A stretch of 33,349 bases of DNA from a virus (lineage: Duplodnaviria > Caudoviricetes). Of the stretch, positions 1 to 33,349 are shown one piece after another. Under the pieces are notes generated by a model. The model ran no database searches and was not told the DNA's origin. It worked only from the letters and a program-made list of their open reading frames with translations. Each line of letters begins with the position of its first letter. Positions within the stretch are counted from its first letter, which is position 1. Both the position numbers and the translations under genes were made by a program. The stretch covers positions 1 through 33,349 of IMG/VR virus record IMGVR_UViG_3300028586_000791; one strand, 5' to 3'.

Positions 1-243
1 TTATCCCTCCATAAACGCAATAACGTTATAAATGGTGCGGTCGCTAATGTTGTACATAGCAGCAGTAATACCCGCGGCCTTTGTTTTCTTCGGTTTACCA
101 AATTCCTGAAATAGCAAATCAGACTGTTTTAAATAAGCTTCATAATATACCTTCCAGTCTAATACGTGCACCGGAATAAGGCTTTTGCCCATCAGCTTTA
201 CAAAGTTATCGCCAAGGCTTTTTATAGTTTCATACCGCGTCAT
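1..243 (-). CDS. Small phage protein with C-terminal helix-turn-helix (80 aa); possible late-gene regulator
   Basis: ATG at 243 preferred because the longer ORF overlaps the upstream gene; C-terminal AAGITAAMYNISDRTIYNVI is HTH-like. Confidence 0.55.
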   Translation of the reverse strand: MTRYETIKSLGDNFVKLMGKSLIPVHVLDWKVYYEAYLKQSDLLFQEFGKPKKTKAAGITAAMYNISDRTIYNVIAFMEG

Positions 244-244
244 G

Positions 245-484
245 TTACCATTTATGTATAGGGCAAATATCGTTACTGCGCACTTTAGCGCTAAGCGGGC
301 ACCTGCAAATGTTGCAGTAGTTACCCTCAATTTCTTTAAGAGAATCATTTATAAAGGTCAGCAATTTTCCATGCCTTACATTAGGGCAGGCTGCGCAAAT
401 AACCGCACGCTCACTTGCAACAGCCTCAGTAACCTCGCTTTTTAAAAGGTAATTTTTCCAACCCGATAAAATTTCATGTAACAT
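245..484 (-). CDS. Small Cys-rich, probably zinc-binding phage protein (79 aa)
   Basis: CAAC...CNICRC...CPIHKW pattern; ATG at 484. Confidence 0.6.
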   Translation of the reverse strand: MLHEILSGWKNYLLKSEVTEAVASERAVICAACPNVRHGKLLTFINDSLKEIEGNYCNICRCPLSAKVRSNDICPIHKW

Positions 485-571
485 ACTTTGCAATAACGTG
501 AGCAAATCTTAGCCAAATTGCTGCTCGCTTTACATTCTCTGTGTTCATGCTGAGAGAGCATAGCACATTAA

Positions 572-10092: not shown

Positions 10093-11418
10093 TCACCCTA
10101 CCCGTACTTTTGTAGCAAAAGTCTTCCGTAAGGCAAACCAATACCGCATCATAATGCTGTCCCACTCATCTGGGCTGCGGCCTATGAGCTCCTTAATGCG
10201 GTCTTTGGGGATGATGCCCTGCCTCCCGTCTTTATCGATATCCTTAAGTTTGATCTGCTCCATTTCTTCGGCGGTGGTTTGCTTTACAGCATCGTTGTCG
10301 CAAAGCTCGCCTGCCAACCGATTCGTGATCATCTCGGCCATTTTTATGGAGCACTGACTCTTAAGGTTGTCGTAGTTGGGCTTAACGTAAGCACCGCCTT
10401 CGAGCATTTCGAGCGGCGCCGAATTGTTTACAAAACCTTTGCATTTAAGAAAGTCGACCACGCCGCCACCCACACCGTCTTCGTCGGCCACCACGTTAGA
10501 GAGTGCAATGCCGTGGCGGGTTTGCAGGATCTTTGCACGGCCCACCACCTCGTCGAGTCCGCTCTTGGCAATGCTCTCCCGCGCAATGCACAGCCACCCG
10601 TGCCAAATGCGGAACACCGTTTTGTCGCGGCCCTTACGGGCAACGTCAATCGTCATGAATTTAAGTCCGTTGGGAATAACGTGCGAAGGGTTAAAGTAGT
10701 CGGCAATGCTGTCGTTGTCCATGAGCGTTGCAGGGTCGTCGTCATACTCCCAGTTGCCGTAGTACAGGCGTTCCCTGCTGTTCTTGTCGAGCCGTAAAAG
10801 CGACTGTAAATAACTGGGGTGCAGGTAGGGATTATCTGTAGGCAGGCTCTGAATGAACCGCCTGTGCAGGGGCAAAATACCGTCGCGCTTTGGCTTGTAA
10901 AACTCTTTGTACGCCCAATTCTTGGCAGGGTTGCAGGAGCCTAACATCTTAGGGATGAGTCCGTACTGCGTAAGCTTATACCTTATACGGCTTTTTACAA
11001 TTTGCCACGCATGGTAGGCCACCTGGTTGCACTCGTCTATAAAAGCACCGCTGATTTCGAGGGAACCCAAGCTGTCGAAATTAGGATCGGAAGGGTACGA
11101 AAACAGGTCTTTGAGTAAAATCTGGCTACCGTTATTAAACTGGATTACATGCTCTACCGATTTGTATTTAAACTGGCTGCCAAGGTGCAGCAGTGTTGCC
11201 TGCTCAAAAAAAGTATTGAGCGTGGTCTCTTTAAGTGTCTTGAGCTTTGACCGACCCATAAGCCAGCGCGTACCAGGATATTTCTGACACATTTCTATGA
11301 GCCAAAGGCATCCCAGCGCGCTCTTGCCGCCACCGGCAGCACCGCCATAAAGTATCTCTTCGGTTACATTGTCTTTTAAATAAAAGACGGCATGCTCCTG
11401 TTTAACCAGCAGTTTCAT
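10093..11418 (-). CDS. terL: Terminase large subunit (441 aa)
   Basis: Walker A GGAAGGGKS, Walker B AFIDE, coupling motif SCNP, nuclease IDVAR.G.D and SPDEWD. Confidence 0.95.
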   Translation of the reverse strand: MKLLVKQEHAVFYLKDNVTEEILYGGAAGGGKSALGCLWLIEMCQKYPGTRWLMGRSKLKTLKETTLNTFFEQATLLHLGSQFKYKSVEHVIQFNNGSQILLKDLFSYPSDPNFDSLGSLEISGAFIDECNQVAYHAWQIVKSRIRYKLTQYGLIPKMLGSCNPAKNWAYKEFYKPKRDGILPLHRRFIQSLPTDNPYLHPSYLQSLLRLDKNSRERLYYGNWEYDDDPATLMDNDSIADYFNPSHVIPNGLKFMTIDVARKGRDKTVFRIWHGWLCIARESIAKSGLDEVVGRAKILQTRHGIALSNVVADEDGVGGGVVDFLKCKGFVNNSAPLEMLEGGAYVKPNYDNLKSQCSIKMAEMITNRLAGELCDNDAVKQTTAEEMEQIKLKDIDKDGRQGIIPKDRIKELIGRSPDEWDSIMMRYWFALRKTFATKVRVG

Positions 11419-11923
11419 CGCTAAGGGGGTTTTGGCCGGAGCCCAAATTGAGCGTTACGGCACCGGGAGCTGCCTCATCGCTATCGTCATACTTTTCGTT
11501 CCACTGCGCGGGGTTACGGTTCCTTAACCAAAACTGCTGACTCCTGAAGTCGGCCGGAATGTGCTTCTCGACCTCTACAATTTCTATGCGTTCTTTCTCA
11601 ACGCGTTTTCCGTTCTCGTCATAATAAATTTCCTTACACTTAATGGCCTGCCGCGTGGTAATGACCCTGTCTACCGTGGCCTGGTACAGCGAATGTGCTA
11701 CCTCCATATCGGCCTGCCGCCTGCCCCGGGTAAGCGCTTCGGCAAACTCAGCATGGTCTTTTTTCCAACGCGCAAACATGCGCCGGCTTACGCTAAAAAA
11801 CGTTGCCAGGTCGTGTTCGGTCAGCCCCAACAGCATGAGCTTGGTTGCCTGCGCCGCATAGGTTTCGCTATATTCTTTTTGTGTGGTTTTATGTATAACG
11901 GAAGCTGTTAGTGCTTCGTTCAT
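11402..11923 (-). CDS. terS: Terminase small subunit (173 aa)
   Basis: KL.LLG.T..DLA.FF.VS...W...H.EF.EAL..G...AD..V..SLY and FWLRNR.P..W motifs; overlaps the terL start. Confidence 0.85.
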   Translation of the reverse strand: MNEALTASVIHKTTQKEYSETYAAQATKLMLLGLTEHDLATFFSVSRRMFARWKKDHAEFAEALTRGRRQADMEVAHSLYQATVDRVITTRQAIKCKEIYYDENGKRVEKERIEIVEVEKHIPADFRSQQFWLRNRNPAQWNEKYDDSDEAAPGAVTLNLGSGQNPLSDETAG

Positions 11924-11991: not shown

Positions 11992-12534
11992 TTAAATTTG
12001 AGTTGTGATAATTTGTAAATTCCCTTTCAGTTGTTGAAAGTCACGATCATTTGTCACTATTTTATAATTGTTTAATCTTGCAATTTCAGCAAAATAGCTG
12101 TCATTAAAATCAGCTATCAGGAAGTTTTGCTCAATATTAGTTACATCAATGGCATTTAAATTATCAAGAACTTTTACCACAATGGGCAATGCAAGTATTT
12201 TCTTAATCAGAATTAATATTGTCCCTACACTGCTTTTATAATCCGATGTTCCTACGTAATCCTTTTTAAAATCTTTGCCGATATTCTGAGCAAGACCACT
12301 CCATTGTTTGAAACTTTTTCGTAAAAGAACATTCGAAAATTCAGAAATCACCATTGAAGTAATATATATTCCTCCATTTCGCGACAATAGTTCTTCTAAA
12401 AATTTAGAATATGCCTGCTGATCTTTTTTCTCGTAATTTGCAATTGTTCCAAAGAGGAGTATCCAGATATTAGTATCAAAAAAAAATTGGTCAGTAAAGC
12501 CAATTTTATATTCAGTAACGTTAGTCGCGACCAT
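11992..12534 (-). CDS. PIN-domain (VapC-like) ribonuclease (180 aa)
   Basis: FFDTNIW, VISEF, DFNDS and IVTNDRDF acidic PIN motifs; ATG at 12534 overlaps the end of the upstream gene. Confidence 0.88.
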   Translation of the reverse strand: MVATNVTEYKIGFTDQFFFDTNIWILLFGTIANYEKKDQQAYSKFLEELLSRNGGIYITSMVISEFSNVLLRKSFKQWSGLAQNIGKDFKKDYVGTSDYKSSVGTILILIKKILALPIVVKVLDNLNAIDVTNIEQNFLIADFNDSYFAEIARLNNYKIVTNDRDFQQLKGNLQIITTQI

Positions 12535-12886
12535 AAATTGCGTCATTTGAGTTTTTTTCGAACGTATCTCTATTCGCAAAATATTCTTTTGCCCGCTGAA
12601 TAACATCTTTGAAGAGTTTTTGGTCGTCTTTCTCTACGTTCTTAAGCTCTAAATATTCATTTAAAAACTCACCAGTATATTCCTTTTTGCTATATAAACT
12701 TCCAATTGCAGCATTTAAAAATGCTGTGATCATTATTGTTATACCAGCAAAATCAAGCTCAACTTTTTCTTTCTTTTGCAGATATCCATCTACAATTTCG
12801 AAAATTCTATTACCATTTTCTGTAGAAACTGCTAAATCAGTTCCAATTATGTCCTTGATAATTAGGTGCTCCATGTTTATTTTCAT
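12521..12886 (-). CDS. STAS-like domain protein (DUF4325-type anti-anti-sigma fold)
   Basis: VELDFAGITIMITAFLNAAIG matches the STAS LDF.G....S/T.FL motif. Confidence 0.8.
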   Translation of the reverse strand: MKINMEHLIIKDIIGTDLAVSTENGNRIFEIVDGYLQKKEKVELDFAGITIMITAFLNAAIGSLYSKKEYTGEFLNEYLELKNVEKDDQKLFKDVIQRAKEYFANRDTFEKNSNDAIYGRD

Positions 12887-12903
12887 GCATTATTTTGCTT
12901 TCG

Positions 12904-12934
12904 CAAAGGTATGTTTTTAAAATATATTTTCAAA
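12904..12934 (-). promoter_or_regulatory. Bacteroidota housekeeping promoter for STAS-PIN genes
   Basis: Minus strand TTTG-N19-TACCTTTG matches the -33/-7 (TTG-N19-TAnnTTTG) consensus. Confidence 0.7.
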
Positions 12935-13801
12935 ATCATCAATTGCTTCAATTGTAAGCCTGTAGTGATTAACATCGTTTAGGTTAAATCTAATGTTAAT
13001 AATGGTACCATCAAAAATCGAATTTAATGTTTTTTTCGACACAGTGCCGTTATAATACTCATAAAATCCATCTGATGATACAACCTGTATTTTGCCTTTA
13101 TTCAACGTTATAAATTCAAATATTACAGCTAAGCCCAACCCGCCAGATGTGTTGCCTGTTTTGGTTGTATTGCCTTTTACCATCGCCCATTCAATTGCAT
13201 CAGCGGCATATAAATCTCTTTTTAAAAATTTAGAAACATTATGTTTAATATTAATTCCTTTATCTACGATTGTGAAAAACAATGGTTTATCTGGAGATTT
13301 TGGATAAAATTGTCCACAGGTATGTATGTAATCGCATTTACCATGTGTACGGGCATTCTCGTACATCTCAAAGATGTTTTTTGTAATTTCTTTACCAAGG
13401 CGTGCACTATGAGATGGGAAGTCTTTCTTATTTAATAATTCTTTTTGTATATAGTTATTAAAACTACTATCATCTTTTGAAGTGAATTTTCGATATGTTA
13501 ATGACGTGCCATAATGATCAGACAGCTTTTCATATCCAAAATGAACTAAAAAACCATTCTTCTGTAATATTTTTTCTACTGACTCAGTAAGGTTAATGAC
13601 GGATGTAATATTTCCATTATTTTCCAATATCTCTATAACGCTACCAAGAATTGCGCATAGATTAGCTTCTAAAAATGTAGTCTTATGGAAATCAAAAATA
13701 ATTTTAGTATTTTTTATTAATCCATATTTATTAATGATGTTTATAATAAAATCATATCCATCAAAATCACCTTTAACATTACTTGGAATTTCAATTACCA
13801 T
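12917..13801 (-). CDS. GHKL/HATPase anti-sigma-type kinase with N-terminal STAS-like domain (294 aa)
   Basis: N-box EMYENARTH, G1 IVDKGI, G2 GGLGL, terminal GT; N-terminal IIFDF..TTFL. Confidence 0.82.
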   Translation of the reverse strand: MVIEIPSNVKGDFDGYDFIINIINKYGLIKNTKIIFDFHKTTFLEANLCAILGSVIEILENNGNITSVINLTESVEKILQKNGFLVHFGYEKLSDHYGTSLTYRKFTSKDDSSFNNYIQKELLNKKDFPSHSARLGKEITKNIFEMYENARTHGKCDYIHTCGQFYPKSPDKPLFFTIVDKGINIKHNVSKFLKRDLYAADAIEWAMVKGNTTKTGNTSGGLGLAVIFEFITLNKGKIQVVSSDGFYEYYNGTVSKKTLNSIFDGTIINIRFNLNDVNHYRLTIEAIDDFENIF

Positions 13802-13980: not shown

Positions 13981-14529
13981 CTACTGCTTACTCGATATTC
14001 CGCTCCATATCCTCCTTAAATTACGACTGTAGTTAAACTCGTCGCTACAGGCAAAGTCGGCATGGTCGCGCTGACTCTCCAGTTCGGCCAGTGAGCAGCG
14101 GTCATCAAAATACTGACGGAAGAACGTGAGTACCTTTTGTACTGTAAGGCTTTCGTACAACTCACCATACTGCCCGCTGATAATCTTGCGGAACAGGTAA
14201 GTAAGGTCGCTCATGCGCAGGGAGCCGTACAGGTTTATCACCTCTGTGGCGCAGTGCTCAATCTGGTCTTCGGTCATGGGTTTGTTCAGGTTCAGCATGT
14301 CGTTGAGGTACACAAGCCAGCCCATGGTGAGGCCTATGGCAAATTCCTTCCCGTTTTCGCGGTTTATAGCCGCCAGCGTGGGTGCTGTAGTGTTCATGGC
14401 TGCGCTAAGGTTTGTAAGCTTATGGGCATGCAGCATACAGTTATTTGGACTGTAAACGGTTAGCAATCTTTCGCCTGAAATCGTCGCTGTACCGCACTTT
14501 GCCTTTACCGGCAGCTGGTTTTGTTGCAT
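13981..14529 (-). CDS. Hypothetical phage protein following the replication initiator (possible helicase loader/accessory)
   Basis: Intact ORF with L.MSDL...F.....GQYG.LY pattern; start uncertain (89-bp overlap with upstream gene). Confidence 0.55.
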   Translation of the reverse strand: MQQNQLPVKAKCGTATISGERLLTVYSPNNCMLHAHKLTNLSAAMNTTAPTLAAINRENGKEFAIGLTMGWLVYLNDMLNLNKPMTEDQIEHCATEVINLYGSLRMSDLTYLFRKIISGQYGELYESLTVQKVLTFFRQYFDDRCSLAELESQRDHADFACSDEFNYSRNLRRIWSGISSKQ

Positions 14530-20218: not shown

Positions 20219-20506
20219 CTAACTATTATAAAAATAGGCGTCCAAATCTCTACTGACTTCCGGCTTATTAGCCTTTATAAATTCATGGTCCTCCTCGCGC
20301 ACAGTACTAAGACGATGCTCACACAACGTTTCCTTTGCTATCATCCTTAAATGCGCCTGTACATACTCGTTGTTACTGTAAGGGTCGGCATTTTTGGTTT
20401 TCACTTTTCGCCTGGCTCTATAGTAACGTACAAGCAGTCCGGTACCTATCAAAAGTATCTGAAGGATCGTTACAATAAGGGTACCGCTGTTAAAAAAATA
20501 CTTCAT
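20219..20506 (-). CDS. Small single-pass membrane protein (paralogue 1)
   Basis: N-terminal TM helix, basic stretch, NEYVQAH..M motif. Confidence 0.6.
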   Translation of the reverse strand: MKYFFNSGTLIVTILQILLIGTGLLVRYYRARRKVKTKNADPYSNNEYVQAHLRMIAKETLCEHRLSTVREEDHEFIKANKPEVSRDLDAYFYNS

Positions 20507-20509
20507 ATA

Positions 20510-20803
20510 TTATTCTTCATTTTCATGCATATCTGTACGGGACACCGACCTTTTATTAAAATAAACTTCGTATCCGTTCATGGCAGCCCACTGCACATAG
20601 GCAGCATAGTCCAGTTCGTTCTGCACTGCAAAAGGTGTTTTTTCGGCCTTTGTGTTCTTTATCTTTTTATCTAACCTGCTGTACGGAATTTGGAGTATAA
20701 ACGACATTACAAAAAACACTAAAAGTCCACCCATAAAGTATTTGCCCTTTTCTTCGCTATTCGCAACCGCGGCACTTAACAATATTATAAATAGCTTATT
20801 CAT
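20510..20803 (-). CDS. Small membrane protein (paralogue 2)
   Basis: ATG at 20803; TM helix; NELDYAAYVQWAA..G.E.YF motif. Confidence 0.6.
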   Translation of the reverse strand: MNKLFIILLSAAVANSEEKGKYFMGGLLVFFVMSFILQIPYSRLDKKIKNTKAEKTPFAVQNELDYAAYVQWAAMNGYEVYFNKRSVSRTDMHENEE

Positions 20804-21059
20804 AGCGTCGGGGTAAATTATTGTCTTTAACCTGTTCCATGAAAGTTTCAAAGTTCCTGCTGAATGTTATGTTAGATGACTCGTTCACCAACATTATAGT
20901 ATGTGCCTGTATATAAAAATTATCCGCTTGCAATTCGTTTTTAGTCTTCTTCTTTCTTATTGTTAAAAGTACTGTAAGGAATTTTATACTCAAAACAGCT
21001 GCCTGGAAAGCCACACAACCTAAAAAAGTATACAGCGCATAAATAAAAAAATTATACAT
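20796..21059 (-). CDS. Small membrane protein (paralogue 3)
   Basis: TM helix, basic stretch, NFYIQAH..M motif. Confidence 0.55.
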   Translation of the reverse strand: MYNFFIYALYTFLGCVAFQAAVLSIKFLTVLLTIRKKKTKNELQADNFYIQAHTIMLVNESSNITFSRNFETFMEQVKDNNLPRRYE

Positions 21060-21069
21060 ATATGTTAAA

Positions 21070-21357
21070 TTAGATTTTCAGGAAATAAGGTTCATGCCCA
21101 CGCTCCGCAGCCCACGCCAGGTAATCGGCATAGTACATCTCGTTAATTATCTCGATGGGAATACCTTTTGGCCTGGCCCTTTCTTCCCGGTATGCCTCCA
21201 GTTTTTTAAATATAGGTGTATATACTTTATTCCAAAAAACGACCGCCATTGTAAAACCAAATATAACGGCTCCCAGAAACACTAAGATCTCGATAATCCG
21301 CGCCGACTGCGCCGCTGTCATTAGTAACGTAGCGTTAAAAGTTATTGCTTGTACCAT
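21070..21357 (-). CDS. Small membrane protein (paralogue 4)
   Basis: TM helix; NEMYYADYLAWAA..G.E.YF motif; TATATTTG -7 element at 21372-21379. Confidence 0.6.
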   Translation of the reverse strand: MVQAITFNATLLMTAAQSARIIEILVFLGAVIFGFTMAVVFWNKVYTPIFKKLEAYREERARPKGIPIEIINEMYYADYLAWAAERGHEPYFLKI

Positions 21358-21722: not shown

Positions 21723-21986
21723 CCTCACCCCTAACCCCTCTCCAAAGGAGAGGGGAACTCATACCGGCTTACTCAAATTCAATCACGAGTGTATCTCATT
21801 CTGAAATCTAAAATCAAAACACTGCAAAACCCGCTTCAGTACTTTGGCCTCACCCCTAACCCCTCTCCGAAGGAGAGGGGAACTCATACCGGCTTACTCT
21901 GATTTAAACCATGAGTGAAACTCAATCTGAAATCTACATTCTGAAATCTGAAATCAAACCACTGCAAAACCCGCTTCAGTACTTTA
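21723..21986. repeat. Tandem duplication (125-139 bp) of a REP plus ACTGCAAAACCCGCTTCAGTACTTT unit
   Basis: Units 21723-21845 and 21848-21985; related partial unit at 21419. Confidence 0.8.
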
Positions 21987-22001
21987 CCAAAATACCCGCC
22001 G

Positions 22002-22009
22002 TACCTTTG
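22002..22009 (+). promoter_or_regulatory. -7 promoter element of the head/lysis operon
   Basis: TACCTTTG about 106 bp upstream of the protease ATG; no TTG at the -33 position. Confidence 0.55.
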
Positions 22010-22115: not shown

Positions 22116-23138
22116 ATGACAGGAAACATTTATATCTCCGGCCAGATAGGCACGTTCGACGGTACAACCGGTGTAGCGCTTATAGACGTGGTGAGTCAGG
22201 TAAAAAAGCAGCATGAAGCAACCGCCTTTAACGTGCACATAAACAGCGAGGGCGGACTGGTAGATGTGGGTTTCGACATTTACCAATACCTAAAATCGCT
22301 CAAAAAGCCCATCACTACTATAGGCAGCGGTATTGTAGCCAGCATAGCCACCGTAATTTTCATGGCAGGCGATAAGCGGCAGGTGCGCGAAAATACCCCG
22401 TTTATGATTCACCTTCCGTGGGGCGGGTCTATGGGTACGGCAGACGAGCTGGAGCAATTTGCAGATCAGCTTCGTGCCATCGAGAAAAAGATGGTGGGCT
22501 TTTACACAAAGGCGCTCAACGTGCAGGAACAGGCCATAATGCCGCTGCTTAAAAACGAAACGTGGCTCACGGGCAGGCAGCTTGCCGCCCTGGGCTTTAC
22601 TACCTCGCGGCAGGTTAAGGCCGCAGCCAAAGCTTTCATTAACCCCAACTCTACTATGAGAGGAACATTTACCGACAACGACAGGCACTGGATGGAAGGC
22701 CTGTTTACTAAAGTACTGGGCAAGTTTAAAAGTGCCCACATTTTTAACAAAGTGGTGCAGGACGCTACGGGTGCCGAACTCGATTTTACCGATCTGCCCG
22801 ATGATGCATTAATTGAAGTGGGTGCTACAGCAACGGTAGACGGCTCCCCTGCCGAAGGCGAATACCTGCTGCCCGATGGCTACACGTATGTATTTACAGC
22901 CGGTGAACTTACCGAAATTATCGAACCCGAAGAAGACGCTGAAGCCGCTTCGCTGCGTACTGAAAACAAAGCCCTGAAACGCCAGCTTAACACTATTAAA
23001 AGTGAGGTGCTTGCCCTAAAAAGACAAGTAACGAGCAAGTTTAGTGTAGATAGCAAAAAGGTGGCACAGCGCAGGGCGGGAGAAACCGATAAACTTGCCG
23101 GGATGAAAGAATATTTGAACAAAAACACCCGTAAGTAA
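22116..23138 (+). CDS. Clp-type (S14) prohead protease fused to a scaffold-like C-terminus (340 aa)
   Basis: HINSEGG, VASIAT (Ser), FMIH.P (His), ETWL; C-terminal coiled coil; precedes capsid gene. Confidence 0.88.
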   Translation: MTGNIYISGQIGTFDGTTGVALIDVVSQVKKQHEATAFNVHINSEGGLVDVGFDIYQYLKSLKKPITTIGSGIVASIATVIFMAGDKRQVRENTPFMIHLPWGGSMGTADELEQFADQLRAIEKKMVGFYTKALNVQEQAIMPLLKNETWLTGRQLAALGFTTSRQVKAAAKAFINPNSTMRGTFTDNDRHWMEGLFTKVLGKFKSAHIFNKVVQDATGAELDFTDLPDDALIEVGATATVDGSPAEGEYLLPDGYTYVFTAGELTEIIEPEEDAEAASLRTENKALKRQLNTIKSEVLALKRQVTSKFSVDSKKVAQRRAGETDKLAGMKEYLNKNTRK

Positions 23139-24196
23139 TGAGCGTTATTAATGCAGAAGGATTAACACTACACGCCCGTGAGGCCGAAACGGTAAGCGAG
23201 GTAATTTTTGCAAGGGTTTTTAACGAAAGCGACCTTGCCGAATACCACGAAATAGAAACGGGTATTGATGTAAACACCCAGATTGCTTTCGCCGGAAGGC
23301 TTGGGTTGTTAGGTAAAAAGTCGGCGGGGTGCCAGCCTAACGAAGCGGGTGGTTTTGCACTGACAGAGAAATTCTGGACACCCGTGCTGGAAGATTTCAG
23401 GCTGAGGCATTGCCAGGCAGATATGCCAGCTTTGTTTAAAATGTTCAGGAAATCCCAGCGCATCAACCCCGACTTTTTTGATGCCGTAGGCTCGCAGGAG
23501 TTTGGCGTTATCATATCGGCGGTAGAAACGGCTTTGCAGGAAAACATTCACCGCAAGGTATGGTTTAACGATACGGCGGCTGCCACTACGGCAAACGGTG
23601 GAGTGTTTAAAGTAGGCACCGACCTTGATTACTTCAACTCCTTTAGCGGACTCTTTAAGCAAATCTTTACAGCGGTTACTGCCGGTAAGGTTACCCGTGT
23701 GCCTATAGATGTTAATACCGGTGCAGGCTATAACACACAGGCACTTGCTGCCGATGCTGCTATTGGTATTTTCGAGAAAATGCTTAACACAGCCGATGAA
23801 AGGCTTGTTGCTGCCGATGATGCTTTTATCCTTGCCTCACGCTCCCTGGCTGATAATTACCGTGCCACGCTTCGCAACAAGAACTTAGGTTCGGGCTTTA
23901 TGGAAGTGGTTGAGGGTGGCCGTCCTAAACTGTTATTTGATGGTATAGAAGTTAAAGTGCGCTACGATTGGGACCGTTATATTAAAACATACCAGGACAA
24001 CGGCACTAAATTCAACCTGCCACACAGGGCGGTATTTACTACAAAGAGCAACATTCCGGTAGGTACGTTAAGCGACGCCGACCTTTCTAAACTGGATGTG
24101 TTTTATGACAAGACCCTTAAAACTAATTTTATGGATGCTGCCTATACTATTGATGCCAAATTACTGGAAGAATATATGGTTGTAGCGGCGTATTAA
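23138..24196 (+). CDS. Major capsid protein (352 aa)
   Basis: Size and coupling to the protease gene; WF.D....FSGLFK pattern of Bacteroidota phage capsids. Confidence 0.78.
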   Translation: MSVINAEGLTLHAREAETVSEVIFARVFNESDLAEYHEIETGIDVNTQIAFAGRLGLLGKKSAGCQPNEAGGFALTEKFWTPVLEDFRLRHCQADMPALFKMFRKSQRINPDFFDAVGSQEFGVIISAVETALQENIHRKVWFNDTAAATTANGGVFKVGTDLDYFNSFSGLFKQIFTAVTAGKVTRVPIDVNTGAGYNTQALAADAAIGIFEKMLNTADERLVAADDAFILASRSLADNYRATLRNKNLGSGFMEVVEGGRPKLLFDGIEVKVRYDWDRYIKTYQDNGTKFNLPHRAVFTTKSNIPVGTLSDADLSKLDVFYDKTLKTNFMDAAYTIDAKLLEEYMVVAAY

Positions 24197-24867: not shown

Positions 24868-25485
24868 ATGCCAATAGATTGTACAGGACACTTAACTGCC
24901 GATATTACTTTTAACTGTGCTAATGCGCCAGTGGGCGGCATCGAGCAAAATGTGGTGCTTATTAATAAAGACGATGTAGATCTTACCGCTACAACCGTAA
25001 GTGCCGATAACAGGCTGCAGGTTACGCAAATTCAGCTTAAGCCGGGCAAGACAGGCTACAAACTTACCGGTGTAAAACAAAGCAACGGCAAAGCTTGGGA
25101 GCTGGTTAAAAAAGAAAATGCACCCGATAAGTTTAAACATACCTTTAGCGGGGTGGTCTTTAATCCAAGCCTTGCTAATAAAATTCAGGCAGATAACCTG
25201 AGCAAAGGTGGTAAATATCTTGCCGTTATAGAGCAGGTATGGAAAGGCAGCGGCAACGCCGATGCATTTGAGGTTTTAGGGTACAACTCAGGCCTTGAGC
25301 TTATTACCATGACTAACAGCTCGAAGGAAAATGATAACATGATCATGTTCGAGCTGGCATCTGCCGATGGGTTTGAAGAAACCACCATGCCTAAAACCTA
25401 CTACTTTGCCGACGCTGCAAACGGTACCCCATCTGGCTATGCCGAAAGGAAAACATTATTTGACAACTGCTTTACAGAAGCATAA
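24868..25485 (+). CDS. Putative major tail (tube) protein (205 aa)
   Basis: C.......I...C....GG start and beta-rich body typical of the structural protein following the capsid in Bacteroidota siphoviruses. Confidence 0.6.
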   Translation: MPIDCTGHLTADITFNCANAPVGGIEQNVVLINKDDVDLTATTVSADNRLQVTQIQLKPGKTGYKLTGVKQSNGKAWELVKKENAPDKFKHTFSGVVFNPSLANKIQADNLSKGGKYLAVIEQVWKGSGNADAFEVLGYNSGLELITMTNSSKENDNMIMFELASADGFEETTMPKTYYFADAANGTPSGYAERKTLFDNCFTEA

Positions 25486-25979
25486 TGGATTTTAAAACCA
25501 TGGATATAGCCACCCTTACCCGTAGCGTTACGGGCGGGGGTGTGCTCTACCTGGAGCTGTTCTTAAAAGAATATACCTCCCTTTTTAGCGGGCCGGTTAA
25601 TCCCTCCTGCTCTACCTGCTTAACCACTTACTTAACCAAATATCAAAACCATTTTAAAGATATGGAAAATACATGCTACTACAGGCTTCACGCCAAATAC
25701 GAAAATATACCCCTGCAATTTGGCTCACCTATATTAGTCAACAATGCCAACATTACTAACGAGTATGCCGAGGTACTGTTGCAGCAGCCTAACGGTTTGC
25801 GCTTTTTTGCTAACGTGCCACCGGCACAGGATCCGGCAGATCTGTTTACGGTTACTGTGATAGATTCAGCCCCTACAAACGACGAGCCGATAGCGCCATC
25901 ACCCAACGAAGACGACGATAACAGCGAACTGGAAGGCCACGACGACTTTGATATTTTAGAAACCGGCCAACCTGAATGA
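25485..25979 (+). CDS. Hypothetical phage protein with CxxC and acidic tail (164 aa)
   Basis: Translationally coupled on both sides; NPSCSTCL. Confidence 0.6.
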   Translation: MDFKTMDIATLTRSVTGGGVLYLELFLKEYTSLFSGPVNPSCSTCLTTYLTKYQNHFKDMENTCYYRLHAKYENIPLQFGSPILVNNANITNEYAEVLLQQPNGLRFFANVPPAQDPADLFTVTVIDSAPTNDEPIAPSPNEDDDNSELEGHDDFDILETGQPE

Positions 25980-27133
25980 AAACCCTTTTAATAGACGTGT
26001 GGAAGCGGCTTACACCCTGGAGCAAAAGTGCCGATGTGTATGCCAACGATACCGATAACGCGTACCCGGAGCGTATGGACAGGCTGATAAACAATAGCGT
26101 AACGGCCAAGAGTGCAGCAGCCATTATGGTGCAGTACCTCATCGGGAAAGGGTATGGTACAGATGCCGATAACCTGATCATCAACAAAGAAAAAAACCTG
26201 AAGCTGATTGACTTTGCCGATGATGTTGCCGATGACCTTGTAAAGCAGCGCGGTGTATTCATCCACATTAACTGGAATGCGCTGTACCAGATAGCCGACT
26301 GCAGCGTGGTGCCTTACGAGTGGTGCCGCATAGGCAAAAAAGACAGCAACGACTACGCGGGCAAAGTAGCCATTAGCAAAGAATGGCTAAAGCCGAAGCG
26401 CAGCGAAATAGAACTGGTAGACATTTACAATCCGCGTAAAGCGGTAATAGACGCACAGGTAGAAAAAGCAGGCGGGTGGGAACATTACAAAGGCCAGATA
26501 CTGTTTATAAATATGGACACGAAGCTTATTTATCCGCTTTCGCGCATCGATTCGGTTTCCGAAGATTGCGACAGTGAGGCGCAGGCATCCATCTACAAAA
26601 ACAAGCTGTTACGAAAAGGCTTCTTTGGCAATACGCTGGTGGTTACACGTCCGCTCGTTGGCGAAGGCCTTGAGCCCGGAAGCACTGCTCTGACAGAAGC
26701 AGAAAGTGAACGGGAGCGTTTTCAGCAGGCTATAAAAGACAGCCTTGGCGCACAAAATACAGGTGGTGTGCTGTGTCTTGAAATGGACTTTGCAGGAGAA
26801 AAGCTGGACGACGCCATATTAATAAAGCAGATAGAAAGCAAGATAGACGACAAGCTTTTTAACTATACTGAAACCAGCGTGCGCGAAAATATACTGGTGG
26901 CGTTTAACAACCTTCCGGCAGGGCTTATCAAGACCAATGAGGCATCGCTGTTTGGTAATTCGGGTGAGGCGATACGCGAAATGAAACGCACCTACTGGGA
27001 AAACACAACCAAGGAACGCAGCCTTTTAACGGCTGTCATTAATCAATTATTACAGCGGTCGCAGGACTATGCAAGCCTTATTGTAGAACCCTTAAAACTG
27101 ATAGACGATGCAACCCCTGATAACCCGCAGTGA
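25976..27133 (+). CDS. Portal protein (385 aa)
   Basis: DNAYP......NSVT, IYPL, ENIL.AF..P..L..  patterns; position before adaptor gene. Confidence 0.7.
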   Translation: MKTLLIDVWKRLTPWSKSADVYANDTDNAYPERMDRLINNSVTAKSAAAIMVQYLIGKGYGTDADNLIINKEKNLKLIDFADDVADDLVKQRGVFIHINWNALYQIADCSVVPYEWCRIGKKDSNDYAGKVAISKEWLKPKRSEIELVDIYNPRKAVIDAQVEKAGGWEHYKGQILFINMDTKLIYPLSRIDSVSEDCDSEAQASIYKNKLLRKGFFGNTLVVTRPLVGEGLEPGSTALTEAESERERFQQAIKDSLGAQNTGGVLCLEMDFAGEKLDDAILIKQIESKIDDKLFNYTETSVRENILVAFNNLPAGLIKTNEASLFGNSGEAIREMKRTYWENTTKERSLLTAVINQLLQRSQDYASLIVEPLKLIDDATPDNPQ

Positions 27134-27602
27134 TATTGCCCGTTTTAAGCAAATATCTAAAACCCCTTATGATGACAAGCTGCACGAGCAAATACTCGAT
27201 GCGCAGCTGCTGGACCTTCAGCCGCTCATTGGCGAAAGCTTTTTCAACAAAATACTTTCTGCGCCCGAAGATTACAGCGATGTTTTAGAAGGCTGTGTAT
27301 ATGAGCATGACGGTATAAGCTACACTAACTATGGCCTTAGTATGGTGCTGACGTACTTTGCCTATGCCCGGTATATGATGTTCTCGGGTGCTGTAGACAC
27401 GCCGTTTTCGGTAGTCGAAAAACTAAACGACAACAGCAGGCCTATAGAGGCATCGACTAAAAAAACATTGTACACCCTTAACCGGGAAGCGGCAGCGCAG
27501 GTATGGGAGAACGTAAAAAACTATCTTATACGTACTGCACACCCCGATTATAAAACCTGCAGGACAAAACAGGGCGGATTTCGATTTAAAAAAATAGGCT
27601 GA
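27108..27602 (+). CDS. Putative head-tail adaptor (164 aa)
   Basis: I.DAQ..DL.PL.G...GL..VL.YFAYARY motif; follows portal. Confidence 0.6.
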   Translation: MQPLITRSDIARFKQISKTPYDDKLHEQILDAQLLDLQPLIGESFFNKILSAPEDYSDVLEGCVYEHDGISYTNYGLSMVLTYFAYARYMMFSGAVDTPFSVVEKLNDNSRPIEASTKKTLYTLNREAAAQVWENVKNYLIRTAHPDYKTCRTKQGGFRFKKIG

Positions 27603-30097
27603 TGAATATTATATCGACAATAAATGATAAGCGTTTCTCCTTCAATAACATCCAATACTTAAAGAACTATGTTACAGAGGTTCACGGCAATAAAATAGAG
27701 ATATTTAATTGTTATGAGCGGGAAGATGTACTGGCAGAACTTGCGCACTACAATACTTTTATAGTTGATGGCGTTCGGTACCCTAATGCCCTTGCCCTTC
27801 AGGCAGCGTTATTGCCCGTGTTGTACTCACGAAGTAACCTTGGCGGCGATAGCCCTGATATCGATCAGGATAACATAGAGATTGTCCATTATATAAGAAG
27901 CGCATCAGCGTCTGCCGAAAGTGTGTTGGCACAGATAAATAGCCTTGAGATGTATACGCTGGATGCCAAGCAAAGCCTTTGGTTTGTAGTAACCATTCCC
28001 GGGGCAGCAGGGTTAAACGGCAGGGCATTACAGCCGCACACGTATAAATACAAAATGATAAACTATGGCAAGGGAACGTACGGGCAGGACGCATTCCAGT
28101 TGGCAGTAACCGATATAGAACTTGTGTATGCTGCCGAAGCAACGGTTCAGGACATCAGGCTGCAGCCGGATACGCGGGTTGTAACTGTTGGCAGTACTAC
28201 ACAAACCATCAGCAGCTGGGTTAACAGCCAAAGCCCTGCATTAGCTATATCGGCGCATTCCGAAGCTTATACCCTATTTAACGCTACTATAAACGGAACG
28301 GAAGTATCTTATATATGGGCAGGCGGGGCAGGCACTTATGGCAGCAATAGCAGCCGCAGCGTAGCATCCGACTTTTTATTGCTGCCTGAAACGGTCGTAG
28401 CCACAAATCAGGACAACATAGATATTAAAAAGACCTTTGTGCTGCAGGGCTTATACGATATTAATACAATACTGGGTAAAATAAATAACCTGGCTCCCTA
28501 TGCGGTGAATGATAAACAGTCGGTTTGGTTTGTGAGCAGGTCGGTATCAAGGCCATTGGCGCCAAATCTTGATTTGCTGCGGCCGGCAGTAATAAATCCG
28601 CTACTGCTGAAGTACAAAATGCTGAATAAGGGAAAAGGTATTTACGGCGCGGGGCAAACGCAACTTACCGCAGCTGATATTGAATTGGTGTACAGCAACG
28701 AAGCCTCATTAAACGATATTGAAGTTGCTGTAGAAACTGATATTGTGCCATTTACCCTTACGGCAGGGCAAACTATAAGTCAGTGGCTCAATACCGTTAG
28801 CCCGACAAAAACCATACAGCCGCAGGAAGAGGGTTATACCCTGTTTAAAAGCACTGCTGCGGATGATCAAACCTATTTATGGATAGGGAATGCCGGCACT
28901 TACGGCAGCGGCAGGTTACAGTCATCAGAAAATAATTTTCAGTTGCTTAACGAAGCGATCACTCCGGTAAACCAGGATAACATCGATATTAAAAAATCGT
29001 TTACGATACCTAACAATTACACCACCGCAACAATACTTGCAGCCATAAACCGCTTAAGGGCATACGAAATAAAGGAGACGCAATCGGTGTGGTTTATAGG
29101 CAGTCAGCGGGCATTGATACAAAGGCCGTTAACCCCAGGCGTGACAGGACCTATACGTTTTGTAGCTCCCCTTGTACTAAAATACAAAATGCTCAACAAA
29201 GGCAAGGGATGGTATGGGCAGGGAGGCATTGCGCTAACATCGGCCGATATCGAATTGGTTTACACCAACGAGGCATCGTTAGAAGATCTTGAAAGTGGTG
29301 CAGAAACTCAGATTATCGAGTTTAACCTGATACAAGGGCAAACGGTAAGCGATTGGTTAAATAACCAAAACCCAAATATAACCATACAGCCACAGGAAGA
29401 AGGCTACACCATTTTTAAGGGAGTTTTAAATGGTGAAGAGGTATCCTATTTGTGGATAGGCACTGCGGGACGCTACGGTGCCGGCAGGACGCCAGGTACA
29501 GATGAAGATTTCCAGTTGCTAAATGATGTGTCTCCTGCCCCTTTTGTGCCAACCTACTCACAGGTTTTGGCTCAAAATAACAGGACATTAGAATATGCCA
29601 TACACGTCCATGAAGATACCGATGCTACCACTGCCTATGGCGCTGATATACAACACAGGAGCAGGGCGGGCAATAGCATCTCTATAGACTTTGAACAGCC
29701 GGTAGGCACTGTTCGGTATCTTATCCCTGCAAAGCAGGCTGATGATAGTTTTGCAATGCAGAGCGATGTACATAAGCCTGTTAAAACAATAAGTATGACT
29801 ACACCCGGCTTTGAAGACAGCACTTACACCCTTCACGCAGAAGACAGGGACAAGTGGCTGGTATTTATGATCTCAACTGATTTTATAATCAAAGTACCTG
29901 ATGCGATTTTTGCAGCTCATACACTTATTGAAGGTGAGGTAGCCGATGTTGGACAGGCAACATTTTCCGGGGACGGAATAACACTACACTATGGAGCGTC
30001 AGAAAATCCTAAAACCGCCGAGAAGAATAGTGTATTTGGGCTGAAGTTCAGGACGGCTACAGATGTATCATTATATGGCAAACTCGAATTACGATAA
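27602..30097 (+). CDS. Putative tail fibre with three internal repeats of about 185 aa (831 aa)
   Basis: Repeats start at QDNI and share QS.WF, KYKM.N.GKG.YG, DIELVY, YTLF, Y.W.G.AG.YG; fibre-type C-terminal domain. Confidence 0.62.
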   Translation: MNIISTINDKRFSFNNIQYLKNYVTEVHGNKIEIFNCYEREDVLAELAHYNTFIVDGVRYPNALALQAALLPVLYSRSNLGGDSPDIDQDNIEIVHYIRSASASAESVLAQINSLEMYTLDAKQSLWFVVTIPGAAGLNGRALQPHTYKYKMINYGKGTYGQDAFQLAVTDIELVYAAEATVQDIRLQPDTRVVTVGSTTQTISSWVNSQSPALAISAHSEAYTLFNATINGTEVSYIWAGGAGTYGSNSSRSVASDFLLLPETVVATNQDNIDIKKTFVLQGLYDINTILGKINNLAPYAVNDKQSVWFVSRSVSRPLAPNLDLLRPAVINPLLLKYKMLNKGKGIYGAGQTQLTAADIELVYSNEASLNDIEVAVETDIVPFTLTAGQTISQWLNTVSPTKTIQPQEEGYTLFKSTAADDQTYLWIGNAGTYGSGRLQSSENNFQLLNEAITPVNQDNIDIKKSFTIPNNYTTATILAAINRLRAYEIKETQSVWFIGSQRALIQRPLTPGVTGPIRFVAPLVLKYKMLNKGKGWYGQGGIALTSADIELVYTNEASLEDLESGAETQIIEFNLIQGQTVSDWLNNQNPNITIQPQEEGYTIFKGVLNGEEVSYLWIGTAGRYGAGRTPGTDEDFQLLNDVSPAPFVPTYSQVLAQNNRTLEYAIHVHEDTDATTAYGADIQHRSRAGNSISIDFEQPVGTVRYLIPAKQADDSFAMQSDVHKPVKTISMTTPGFEDSTYTLHAEDRDKWLVFMISTDFIIKVPDAIFAAHTLIEGEVADVGQATFSGDGITLHYGASENPKTAEKNSVFGLKFRTATDVSLYGKLELR

Positions 30098-30099
30098 CT

Positions 30100-31722
30100 A
30101 TGGGAACAATTTTAGCAAGCAGGATGCGGCAGCGAATCATGCCTTTTATCTCCACTTGGAAAACCGAAAATATTGGCGAGGGAAGCAGTAATTCGAACCA
30201 GGTAAAGATACCTCTTTATGAAGATGGTATTTATGATTTTAAAGTGGATTGGGGCGATGGGACGGCCTCGAGAATAACAGATTATGATCAGGATGAGGTG
30301 ACGCATACATACGCAGTAACAGGCACCTATACTATAACTATTAAAGGTACCTTGATAGGATTCCGTTTTAATACTACCGGCGACAAGTTGAAGATACTAA
30401 ATGTGCAACAGTGGGGTTGTCTGAGGATTGGTAATTTGGGGCGGGCTTTTAATGGCTGTGCCAATTTAACCCTGAACGATGTAAGTGATGTTTTGAATTT
30501 AAAGGGCGTTACTGATGTAAGTTACATGTTTTCGGGATGTAGCGCACTGACAAATGTTAATCATATCACGGACTGGGACGTTAGTAATGTAATTAACATG
30601 AGTGGAATGTTCTGGCAGGCTTTAGTATTCAACCAATCGCTCAATGGATGGGATACGGGTAAAGTAACGAATATGAGTTTCATGTTCCAGGAGGCAGCGT
30701 TATTTAACCAACCGTTGGATGAATGGAATACTGGTTCGGTAACCACGCTTTACCAAACGTTCAGGGAGTGTAAAGCATTCAACCAAAATATAAATTCGTG
30801 GGATGTAAGTAATGTTACGACGATGCGAGGGGTCTTCTATTTGGCAGGCAATTATAATATGCCATTAGATCTATGGAGTACCGGAAATGTAACTGAAATG
30901 TACAGTATGTTTAATGGTGCCTCCTCCTTTAATCAACCGCTTAACAACTGGAACGTAAGCAACGTAACAAATATGCAATCGATGTTTTACCTAACTACGT
31001 TCAATCAGCCATTAAATAGTTGGGATACGAGTAACGTGACTAATATGGCTCAAATGTTTGGGAGAGCCACGGCGTTTAACCAACCTTTAAATAACTGGGA
31101 CACCAGCAATGTCACAGATATGACCAATATGTTCAGGCTGGCACCGGGGCTTACAGGTGTTTTCAATCAGGACATTTCAATGTGGGATACCGGAAAAGTT
31201 ACGACCATGTTCTATATGTTTGCGTATAACCCTGTATTCAACCAGCCACTTGCAAACTGGAATCTATCAAATGTAGAAGTAGCCAGTTCGATGTTCAGGC
31301 AGACATCTGCTTTTAACAAGCCACTAAACACCTGGAATACCGAAAAAATAATCGAAATGGACTACATGTTTGCAGAAGCAAAAGCCTTTAATCAACAGTT
31401 AAGTAACTGGAATACTGCAAATGTAACTGTAATGTCTAATATGTTTCAAAACGCCACGGCTTTCAATCAGAATATCAGTAATTGGAACGTTGCTAAGGTA
31501 ACCGGATTCACGAATTTTATGGCGGGTAAATCATCGGCAAACTACTCCGTTGCAAATTATAATGCCTTGCTTAACGCATGGGCCGCACAAAATGTAGCTA
31601 CCGGCAAAGCTATACATTTCGGAAGTATAAAATACTCTGCAGCCGGACAGCCGGGACGTACCACACTTACATCTTCAAAAAGATGGACCATTAATGATGG
31701 TGGGTTAAGCCAATCAGTGTAA
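30100..31722 (+). CDS. PKD plus DUF285/BspA-type repeat protein (540 aa); candidate adhesin
   Basis: VDWGDG..THTY...GTYTITI PKD motif; 13 repeats of about 25 aa FNQPL..W....V..M..MF. Confidence 0.85.
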   Translation: MGTILASRMRQRIMPFISTWKTENIGEGSSNSNQVKIPLYEDGIYDFKVDWGDGTASRITDYDQDEVTHTYAVTGTYTITIKGTLIGFRFNTTGDKLKILNVQQWGCLRIGNLGRAFNGCANLTLNDVSDVLNLKGVTDVSYMFSGCSALTNVNHITDWDVSNVINMSGMFWQALVFNQSLNGWDTGKVTNMSFMFQEAALFNQPLDEWNTGSVTTLYQTFRECKAFNQNINSWDVSNVTTMRGVFYLAGNYNMPLDLWSTGNVTEMYSMFNGASSFNQPLNNWNVSNVTNMQSMFYLTTFNQPLNSWDTSNVTNMAQMFGRATAFNQPLNNWDTSNVTDMTNMFRLAPGLTGVFNQDISMWDTGKVTTMFYMFAYNPVFNQPLANWNLSNVEVASSMFRQTSAFNKPLNTWNTEKIIEMDYMFAEAKAFNQQLSNWNTANVTVMSNMFQNATAFNQNISNWNVAKVTGFTNFMAGKSSANYSVANYNALLNAWAAQNVATGKAIHFGSIKYSAAGQPGRTTLTSSKRWTINDGGLSQSV

Positions 31723-31755
31723 GCCTTCTTGAATATTTGTAAATATTCTTATAGT

Positions 31756-32190
31756 ATGAAACCTATTCAATCTATAGCAGTCTTTCTATTCGCGTATTTT
31801 CTCCCTGTGCAGGGGATACTTATTGCAGTAGGTGCTGCAATAGCGCTGGATACCATAACAGGCATTTATAAATCTGTTAAAACGGGACAGCCCTTAATAA
31901 GCCGGCGCTTCGCCGATGTTATCCTGAAAATGTTTGTGTACGAGTTTGTAACGATTATGATATTTACCATAGACCACTTCCTGCTCTCGGAATTTTTCTG
32001 TCTATGGTTTTCCGTGAATTACTTTTTCACAAAAGCTTGTGCAACTGTACTTATTTTTACCGAAATTGTATCTATAAAAGAAAACATAGAACAAGCCCAC
32101 GGAATAAATTTCCTGAAGCAGTTGCGCAATGCACTCAGGCGCACCAAAGATTTAAAGGATGATATATTTGACATTACAAAAAATTCCTGA
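31756..32190 (+). CDS. Phage holin
   Basis: Multiple TM helices, DTITG and E..SI.EN motifs; directly upstream of endolysin; ATG at 31756. Confidence 0.8.
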   Translation: MKPIQSIAVFLFAYFLPVQGILIAVGAAIALDTITGIYKSVKTGQPLISRRFADVILKMFVYEFVTIMIFTIDHFLLSEFFCLWFSVNYFFTKACATVLIFTEIVSIKENIEQAHGINFLKQLRNALRRTKDLKDDIFDITKNS

Positions 32191-32720
32191 TGGATGCACT
32201 AACCTTATCCCGCATAAATTTATTACACCCTGCTGTAAGACAGGAAGCACTCGCTGCCTACACGTATATTAACAATAACCTCTTTGGCAAAAATATACGG
32301 CTGAGGTTCTCGCAAACGTTACGCTCTCTTAACGAGCAAAAGACTCTTTATGCTATAGGCCGTACAAAATCCGGAAAGAAGGTTACCAATGCCAAGGCAG
32401 GTCAGTCGATACACAACTACGGACTGGCATTTGACATAGTAATCCTGATAGATAAAAATGGTGACGGCACTTTCGAAACGGCTTCGTATAATATAAAAAG
32501 TGATAACGATAATGACAAAGTTTCCGACTGGATGGAAGCCGTAAATTATTTAAAAAATCTGGGATGGACATGGGGCGGCGACTGGAAATCTTTTCCGGAT
32601 TACCCGCACTTCGAAAAGACTTTTGGTCATAATTGGAAATCGCTTCAGGCAAAATATAAAGCAGGAGATGTATTTACCGAGGTTATAGATGGCACCACGT
32701 ACACTTGGGTTAATGTATGA
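32190..32720 (+). CDS. Endolysin, M15 family peptidase (CwlK/Ply500-like)
   Basis: R....Q..LY..GRT, VTNA..GQS.HNYGLAFD, WGGDW..F.DYPHFE. Confidence 0.9.
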   Translation: MDALTLSRINLLHPAVRQEALAAYTYINNNLFGKNIRLRFSQTLRSLNEQKTLYAIGRTKSGKKVTNAKAGQSIHNYGLAFDIVILIDKNGDGTFETASYNIKSDNDNDKVSDWMEAVNYLKNLGWTWGGDWKSFPDYPHFEKTFGHNWKSLQAKYKAGDVFTEVIDGTTYTWVNV

Positions 32721-33349
32721 AAAGCTACATATACCCAGGCATTATTACTGCACTGCTGATAATTTTGTTTTATTCTGTCGACCGATGCCAGGGACTTAGG
32801 CAAGCGGCCGAAACGAATTTAACAGCTTTATCAGATAGTATTGGTTATTATCGAAACCGGTTAGGCACACAAACGGCAAGGATAAAAATACTCGAAGTAA
32901 AGCAATCTGACTTAAAAAAGGTTATACTTTCTAAAGACGAGCAATTAGCAGCACTTTCTAAAGAATTTAGCAGGATCAGGACAATAGTGCAGTATACCCA
33001 ACAGATAACTTACGATACCATTGCTGTTACATACAAGGATAGTGTGCCTTGTATATTCAACCGGTTGGGCACGGTCAACACTAAATGGTATGCCTTTAAA
33101 TACGAGTCAACTAACAACGGCTTTGTTATAGACAGTTTAACGCTCGATAATAAAGTAACCGTAATGAGTGGTTTTAAACGCTCCTGGCTCTTAGGCAGGC
33201 AAACCTTAGTCACCGATGTTACCAATTCAAACCCACACATAATGGTAACCGAATTAAAATCAACCGAAATAGTGATACCGTCACCGTGGTATAAAAAATG
33301 GTATGTGTGTCTTGGCGCAGGAGTTATAGGCACATTGATAGCCCGGTGA
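32717..33349 (+). CDS. Putative spanin-like lysis accessory protein (210 aa)
   Basis: N-terminal TM helix, coiled coil, C-terminal hydrophobic tail; follows endolysin. Confidence 0.5.
   Translation: MKSYIYPGIITALLIILFYSVDRCQGLRQAAETNLTALSDSIGYYRNRLGTQTARIKILEVKQSDLKKVILSKDEQLAALSKEFSRIRTIVQYTQQITYDTIAVTYKDSVPCIFNRLGTVNTKWYAFKYESTNNGFVIDSLTLDNKVTVMSGFKRSWLLGRQTLVTDVTNSNPHIMVTELKSTEIVIPSPWYKKWYVCLGAGVIGTLIAR

Follow-up and report, generated by a model that had tools for sequence, protein, structure and literature searches.

Bacteroides phage BS-TP3 (PQ571276) and three uncultured, integrase-bearing Flavobacterium phages (the G001:C2 prophage, L248 and L253) are the systems closest to the locus described here, which is contained in a virus record of 33,349 bases (IMG/VR record IMGVR_UViG_3300028586_000791). 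This record, with a stop codon at each cut end, was analysed at its full length and is called the window below; on the evidence of its gene content, it is an integrase-less siphoviral element from a relative of Flavobacterium rivuli. The four phages have the same gene order, namely repressor, early genes, terS-terL, tail, tape measure, Mor-like gene, Clp, capsid, tube, portal, fibre and lysis genes, and carry an integrase after the lysis genes, unlike the element. The capsid protein of the window is 26% identical to that of BS-TP3 and 64–69% identical to those of the Flavobacterium phages; the corresponding values for the terminase large subunit (TerL) are 38% and 76–83%. G001:C2 also has xis, a 49-bp attachment (att) sequence at tRNA-Phe and a GC content of 0.37, with no hits to repetitive extragenic palindromic (REP) sequences.

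Domesticated defective prophages under purifying selection are known in enterobacteria. F-type tailocins lack a head, portal and terminase, all of which are present in the element and under purifying selection. RcGTA (Rhodogtaviriformidae) resembles the element in its HK97 head, non-contractile tail and vertical inheritance, but is under the control of host regulators, whereas the element has a CI switch in cis. The tail of PBSX is contractile, whereas no sheath family was found among the 35 open reading frames (ORFs) of the window. PBSX of Bacillus subtilis is defective, mitomycin-inducible and packages host DNA, 13 kb in size, and kills rather than transfers (PMC7667829, excerpt); TerL of the element weakly matches TIGR01547. 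Among gene transfer agents (GTAs), BaGTA of Bartonella is similar by description, being endogenous, co-diversifying and located near a phage-derived replication function (PMC9662315, excerpt). BaGTA packages 14 kb and is spread over approximately 79 kb, whereas the element is controlled by its CI switch and has lost its replication initiator (Rep) in many lineages. Brachyspira VSH-1/BhGTA is induced by DNA-damaging agents and released by mass lysis (PMC9662315, excerpt), as is predicted for the element, but belongs to another phylum and has another phage ancestry; transfer is proven there, whereas the element is known from its genes alone. No description of the element was found in CC-licensed PMC papers and bioRxiv, no Bacteroidota GTA is among the characterised GTAs given in the excerpt of PMC12946183, and neither Bacteroid nor Flavobacter occurs in that of PMC9662315. 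On the genomic evidence, the element is a new, independently domesticated variant; domesticated phages of this kind are known elsewhere.

The element is very probably domesticated, as the sequence-only reading of this DNA had proposed and as the tests of locus, integrase and att, selection and descent now support. The balance of evidence leans towards a temperate siphophage remnant that lacks an integrase, is fixed in the chromosome and passes down along with a Flavobacterium subclade, and that would act as a DNA-damage-induced GTA packaging the host chromosome in place. Three of the six features by which GTA viriforms are recognised (PMC9662315, excerpt) were found: particle proteins of Caudoviricete origin by both homology and fold; endogenization, seen in the sequence as lack of integrase and att, a fixed flank, and split and inverted copies; and co-diversification with the host for the head and terminase genes, with some supported conflicts and with swaps of tail and lysis modules. 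The integrase or excisionase and att that mark an active temperate prophage are absent from the element.

No integrase, excisionase, recombinase, helicase or sheath family was matched among the window ORFs, of which several tail ORFs are unannotated and had no fold comparison; the first four absences had been noted in the sequence-only reading, which had left room for an integrase and att sites just outside the window. None was found there. L302, identical to the window across 10243 of 10243 bases, carries host genes (an Ig-domain surface protein, pepP, patatin and uvrC) and no integrase in the 10 kb beyond the left end of the window, and at the right end the contig of a relative runs on into sequence that reads as the C-terminus of F. 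rivuli RecO. Integrase and recombinase families were absent from the 143 scanned of 186 selected flank and cargo ORFs, with integrase tblastn covering all regions, and from 78 further flank or cargo proteins, save that of a separate F. rivuli prophage. Integrase matches were seen in 6 of 30 virus records; among the 15 that belong to the element there was just one, interrupted by a stop. No att repeats were found: among 19 elements, the end-to-end repeats measured 11–14 bp in all but one, where they reached 18 bp; G001:C2, with its 49-bp att, served as the positive control. This prophage has no REP hits in 33 kb and a GC content of 0.368; the recO element that shares its genome has 25 REP hits over 42 kb and a GC content of 0.418.

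The lysis end of the element is flanked by recO-porZ in 18 of the 27 genomes in which the flank was seen, with a gap of 1–82 bp in 15, and the genomes with this site include the earliest-branching members of the clade (rpoB+gyrB tree). In 11 of 16 non-clade genomes recO adjoins ileS, and the G016 element sits between these two genes. A fixed locus, suggested earlier to lie next to dinB, was thus recovered, but at recO-porZ. As a fixed locus dinB was rejected, since it lies inside or adjacent to the element only in the window lineage and F. rivuli and is merely near it in G002 and G003; it is inside because of inversions. The window comprises a leftward block (early genes divergent from the repressor, terminase, tail, tape measure and Mor-like gene), a middle part with host dinB and four small membrane-protein-like ORFs, and a rightward block that runs from the Clp protease and capsid genes through tube, portal and fibre to holin, endolysin and the spanin-like gene. 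In BS-TP3 and most relatives the operons are colinear. In F. rivuli they are separated by approximately 11 kb of host genes including dinB, and operon 1 is inverted in two lineages, seemingly by separate events: that of the window (L238, L244 and L363) and that of F. coralii (G005, G015 and L327). Misassembly as the source of the divergent layout was rejected, since L238, L244 and L363 have the same layout and the Mor-like gene is linked with host genes in a DNA run. The repressor operator and the late promoter, both conserved, define two operons, and their presumed linkage in trans explains why inversions, and host genes inserted between them, are tolerated; such an anatomy would not be viable for a mobile prophage. 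The seven REP-bearing gaps, estimated earlier at about 5.0 kb and as host-type, total exactly 5000 bp, and their repeats are also found throughout the F. rivuli chromosome.

Full-length head, packaging, tail and lysis ORFs with intact motifs had been reported for the window and were confirmed (Walker A/B and the nuclease Asp in TerL; Ala-Gly, Ser and Lys in the repressor), and the complete set of 14 core genes is full length in 19 of 22 whole copies. The ratio of nonsynonymous to synonymous rates (dN/dS; Nei-Gojobori medians over 5–7 independent pairs), which had been put forward as a check, is far below 1: 0.038 for TerL, 0.029 for portal, 0.041 for capsid, 0.062 for protease, 0.054 for tube, 0.053 for repressor, 0.048 for the Mor-like protein and 0.03–0.06 for the two small ORFs resembling single-stranded DNA-binding protein (SSB), with 0.12 for the terminase small subunit (TerS), 0.21 for tape measure and 0.019 for rpoB. 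Low dN/dS by itself would also fit an active phage, and the telling pairs are those lacking both integrase and Rep. For G002/G004 the values are 0.04 (TerL), 0.02 (portal) and 0.04 (capsid), and for G014/G417 they are 0.04, 0.06 and 0.15, respectively. Searches for Rep in five Rep-less genomes were empty, without a positive control, gene order being the main support; at least three changes in Rep are needed on the host tree.

A comparison of element and host trees had also been proposed, and the head tree was found to agree with host genes as well as these agree with one another. In protein trees, head and rpoB have 10 of 21 splits in common, head and gyrB 7 of 21, and rpoB and gyrB 7 of 21; of the 22 splits in the head tree built from nucleotides, 11 recur in that of rpoB (mean 0.18 and maximum 2 in shuffles). 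The GC content of the element follows that of its flanks (r = 0.88, 19 elements). In a TerL tree of 46 rows, 27 element copies, including a fragment (L353) left out of the integrase check, group together on a single branch (SH-aLRT 96, quick method), from which two integrase-bearing relatives are excluded.

The capsid query retrieved 26 loci in species-level genomes (Flavobacterium species or Flavobacteriaceae/Bacteroidota metagenome-assembled genomes) at 76–96% identity, F. rivuli being the closest. The repressor had a single match in 25 of these 26 genomes, 24 at 74–90% identity and one at 38%. An even sample of 401 genomes of the genus gave capsid matches in 18, of which 12 were at 64% or more; at the level of the family, a 401-genome sample yielded F. 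rivuli and a single distant match only. A clade of 15 was defined as the 14 top genomes by RecO ranking of the genus sample plus G016 by rpoB, a ranking that would miss element-less clade members with fast-evolving RecO; 12 of the 15 carry the element, and its orthologues occur in one Flavobacterium subclade. Among the 15 listed of 24 members of the capsid cluster, F. alkalisoli, F. rakeshii and F. beibuense have two named entries each. The remaining three clade genomes carry a different element (type B; G297:C1 1632800–1661200, G078:C2 326200–357000 and G318:C22 32800–59400), with a related repressor and TerL, a differing head, tail and TerS, and no integrase adjacent. In G297 and G078 it lies at tRNA-Phe/coaX, the site of the integrase-bearing prophage in F. 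rivuli; parallel domestication of a second phage is possible. Distant elements with another gene order and capsids of 38–40% identity were seen outside the clade (G368:C23, G317:C12 and G044:C34).

The control circuit is likewise conserved. The recognition helix of the repressor is 98% conserved, and the palindrome GTGGAATATTCCAC (at most two mismatches) was found at the switch in 29 of 30 elements with the switch region available. In the window the operator reads GTGTAATATTCCAC, and the palindrome is flanked by TTTG and TAnnTTTG boxes 19 bases apart, the promoter consensus of Bacteroidota. A second operator-like site (16855–16868) lies within the repressor gene and is conserved in several relatives, where autoregulation or looping is possible. 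The late-promoter motif, an inverted repeat with a -7 box (TACCTTTG in the window), was found upstream of the protease gene in 32 of 35 elements, against 0 of 4 basal relatives; it is absent from G001:C2, L248 and L253, and G001:C2 also lacks the operator. L238 and L244 have it in tandem copies. Stray late-promoter motifs outside the element number one in G001 and four in G002 (L293, L296, L298, L299 and L300), one being just upstream of a presumably HAD-like gene and one upstream of a presumably xth-like gene. The non-canonical LexA of Bacteroidetes is of the phage-type helix-turn-helix (HTH)-S24 kind, and the operator core GGA-N4-TCC of the element resembles its reported GGA-N5-TCC (PMC8565304, excerpt). 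The element repressor differs in that, counting exact matches only, its operator pattern occurs at the element alone in five of five whole genomes and not upstream of host SOS genes; it was therefore rejected as a host LexA and is not the SOS master regulator of the phylum.

In the proposed mechanism, RecA-stimulated self-cleavage of CI would free the lytic promoter, which has the operator in its spacer. Operon 1 would then supply the SSB-like proteins, terminase, tail and, in lineages that still have it, Rep, together with the Mor-like protein, which would activate the promoter before the protease gene to give heads, tube, portal, fibre and lysis proteins. The name of this putative activator of the head and lysis operon comes from its position and from an alignment with BS-TP3 gp61 (hhalign probability 93, 26 columns), itself a weak Pfam Mor match; the Mor-like protein has no Pfam match of its own, nor did PDB or Atlas confirm the label. 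Its binding to the late-promoter motif is likewise presumed. Because the element cannot excise, terminase would fill the heads with chromosomal DNA, perhaps 35–40 kb by analogy with the wild relatives, in a locus-biased, BaGTA-like manner in Rep-positive lineages and more flatly in Rep-less ones. TerL appears weakly PBSX/SPP1-like, and a headful mode may be expected. The recognition helix of TerS, with HTH-type matches at residues ~34–68 in orthologues, is variable, with a mean identity of 49% where the repressor helix has 98%; this weakly suggests that specificity has relaxed. No conserved pac block was seen in terS. Loss of a TerS DNA-binding domain was considered and rejected: TerS of the F. 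rivuli prophage carries an additional HTH at its N-terminus, but a second relative with an integrase has a TerS with a single HTH. Upon lysis, non-contractile particles would inject their DNA into related cells, where it would recombine; that terminase, portal and head have all been kept points to a particle filled with DNA and not to a tailocin.

Several observations weigh against a GTA inherited with its host. Nine of the 27 copies lie away from recO: those of G010 and of five genomes in the beibuense group have another flank in common, near tRNA-His where seen; those of G011 and G006 abut tRNA-His and tRNA-Ser, respectively, and that of G417 is rearranged. Three of the 22 whole copies are broken or reduced, TerL and protease being split in G003. 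Well-supported splits of the head tree conflict with rpoB in 7 of 18 cases, and synonymous divergence is 2–5 times that of rpoB. Tail, tape-measure, fibre and lysis genes are saturated or swapped, with saturation of the tail, fibre and lysis genes even between the window and F. rivuli, and at least four endolysin families alternate among copies. G006 is a mosaic with another repressor and a long TerL branch, and its relative L255 has a broken integrase beside it. The genomes of the relatives are 33–40 kb and the element is 22–42 kb, so the heads may hold the whole element. TerS of RcGTA is without an N-terminal HTH (PMC6854486, excerpt), whereas that of the element retains one. Finally, all the positive evidence suits a PBSX-like killer equally well.

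Such a killer is the main rival explanation: the same domestication and host-DNA packaging would have been selected for killing related strains, with the DNA as filler. We consider it rather unlikely. The DNA-damage-type switch and the hypervariable fibres and tape measure speak for it, as does c20, an exclusion- or immunity-like, polymorphic exported protein (~265 aa; L017:3715–4512 and relatives) encoded antisense after the tape measure gene in many copies, 21–88% identical between them and sometimes duplicated with tape-measure ends (in tandem in L018 and L333). However, the window, F. rivuli and a number of further intact copies lack c20, which is thus not essential for self-immunity, and PBSX is contractile whereas the element has a siphoviral-like tube and no sheath family was found. 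PBSX itself packages host DNA yet acts as a bacteriocin (PMC7667829, excerpt). c20 was not seen in integrase-bearing relatives and has no named family; it is possibly an exclusion or immunity protein. On the genomic evidence, gene transfer is narrowly preferred as the selected role.

An inducible lysis, immunity or defence cassette, serving release of extracellular DNA or vesicles or as a cargo hotspot and with packaging secondary, is improbable. The reduced copies G008 and G015 (L008 and L015), which have lost terminase, tail tip and portal and keep CI, SSB-like, Mor-like, protease and lysis genes, speak for it, as do cargo slots with AbiH, AbiJ, Abi-alpha, HipA, Fic, SocA, restriction-modification and OLD-like genes, but it leaves dN/dS of 0.03–0.04 on TerL, portal and capsid in 19 intact copies unexplained. 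L008 and L015 also keep the tape-measure end from residue ~741–745.

We hold it to be similarly improbable that the element still spreads without an integrase of its own, either in large heads that carry it and its flanks into homologous recombination, in the manner of lateral transduction, or through an integrase in trans. The element length close to the inferred head size, the tree conflicts and module swaps, the use of at least three loci and the G006/L255 mosaic would all agree with such spread, but no att repeats were found, recO directly adjoins or overlaps the final gene of the element, selection continues on copies that are split, inverted or Rep-less, and GC content follows that of the host. 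L255 is a deleted remnant related to the G006 element, with the stop-interrupted integrase after its lysis genes. Slow decay of one or more ordinary defective prophages, with low dN/dS older than independent integrations, is very improbable: three broken copies in 22 and the high REP load of the window fit it, but it demands repeated integration at a non-tRNA site and repeated loss of integrase, selection continues between sister species that both lack integrase and Rep, and TerL forms a single branch.

Table. Positions of genes and control sites in the window (aa, amino acids)
Feature	Position	Strand	Remarks
Mor-like HTH protein, 80 aa	1..243	-	Last gene of operon 1; start at 243
Cys-rich ORF, ~80 aa, cluster c15	245..505	-	Conserved; also in an integrase-bearing prophage
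Tape measure protein, 936 aa	572..3382	-	PHROG tape-measure matches
Tail-tip/neck/chaperone block: 98, 719, 384, 151, 149, 178 aa	3372..9805	-	Synteny with BS-TP3 and all relatives
TerL	10093..11418	-	Pfam Terminase_3; TIGR01547 below cut-off
TerS	11402..11923	-	phrog_309; single N-terminal HTH
Cargo: HATPase-like, STAS-like (DUF4325), PIN	11992..13801	-	GC content 0.30; variable slot, not core
Replication initiator-like gene (14441-15304) and DUF6633 partner	13981..15304	-	Not found in 10 relatives
Two small SSB-like ORFs (82, 84 aa) and first early ORF (112 aa)	15304..16597	-	Weak DUF3127 and SSB PHROG matches for the 84-aa ORF
Genetic switch	16605..16647	.	Repressor -7 box 16605-16612 (+); lytic -7 box 16625-16632 (-)
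Operator	16634-16647	.	Within spacer of lytic promoter
CI-type HTH-S24 repressor	16723..17456	+	Self-cleavage motifs intact; start most likely 16723
Largest REP cluster, 13 motif hits	17457..19025	.	At inferred inversion junction
Host dinB	19026..20114	-	Inside via rearrangement; not core
Four small paralogous membrane-protein-like ORFs	20219..21357	-	Cargo
Late promoter	21961..22009	+	Inverted repeat ACTGCA-N8-TTCAGT, then CCGCCG, then -7 box
ClpP-type prohead protease/scaffold and HK97-fold major capsid protein	22116..24196	+	
Tail tube (205 aa), 164-aa ORF, portal, DUF6712 (head-tail adaptor by position)	24868..27602	+	
Repeat-bearing fibre-like protein (831 aa) and PKD-DUF285 (PARCEL) protein	27602..31722	+	Hypervariable
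Holin, M15 endolysin, DUF6549 protein (spanin-like by position)	31729..33349	+	Tail-to-tail with recO in relatives

The early region does comprise five leftward ORFs in 2.6 kb (13981–16597), as described in the sequence-only reading, but includes a replication-initiator-like gene. Individual roles within the tail-tip/neck/chaperone block are suggested by position. The model of the 352-aa capsid protein (pLDDT 73) matches HK97-fold capsids (best E 1e-9). The best structural matches of the 205-aa protein are siphophage tail tubes (Z 7.4, root-mean-square deviation 3.7, 117 aligned), a weak-to-moderate similarity, and Foldseek with the tube gave nothing at E ≤ 0.001. The repressor ORF of G016 is 245 aa. 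The cargo triplet upstream of terS, a candidate defence or toxin-antitoxin module, had no PADLOC match; in relatives the slot holds HipA, SocA, OLD-like or Abi genes. The four paralogous ORFs, each with a hydrophobic segment and a common C-terminal motif, occur as well in G002, G004, G018, L310 and L331 and are possibly exclusion proteins. The fibre-like and PARCEL proteins may bind receptors; the latter (30100–31722) occupies a fibre position in a subset of copies and is retained in the tail-less G008. Metatranscriptome contigs from one of three runs cover parts of the element, though contig depth cannot show transcription.

More tentatively, the possibility arises of an independently evolved GTA, the first in Bacteroidota, caught mid-domestication: the integrase would have been lost once and replication later in some lineages, terminase specificity would be relaxing, a second phage (type B) would apparently have been domesticated in parallel, and an SOS-type switch would tie transfer to DNA damage beside recO. 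The GTA lineages known so far are few, with only remote phage ancestors. In this group the wild integrase-bearing phage, integrase-less copies with Rep, integrase-less copies without Rep and lysis-only remnants can be compared in type strains that are culturable and non-pathogenic, which makes the route from prophage to GTA or bacteriocin directly testable. Virus catalogues, for their part, enter what is a chromosomal, organelle-like element as many separate proviruses.

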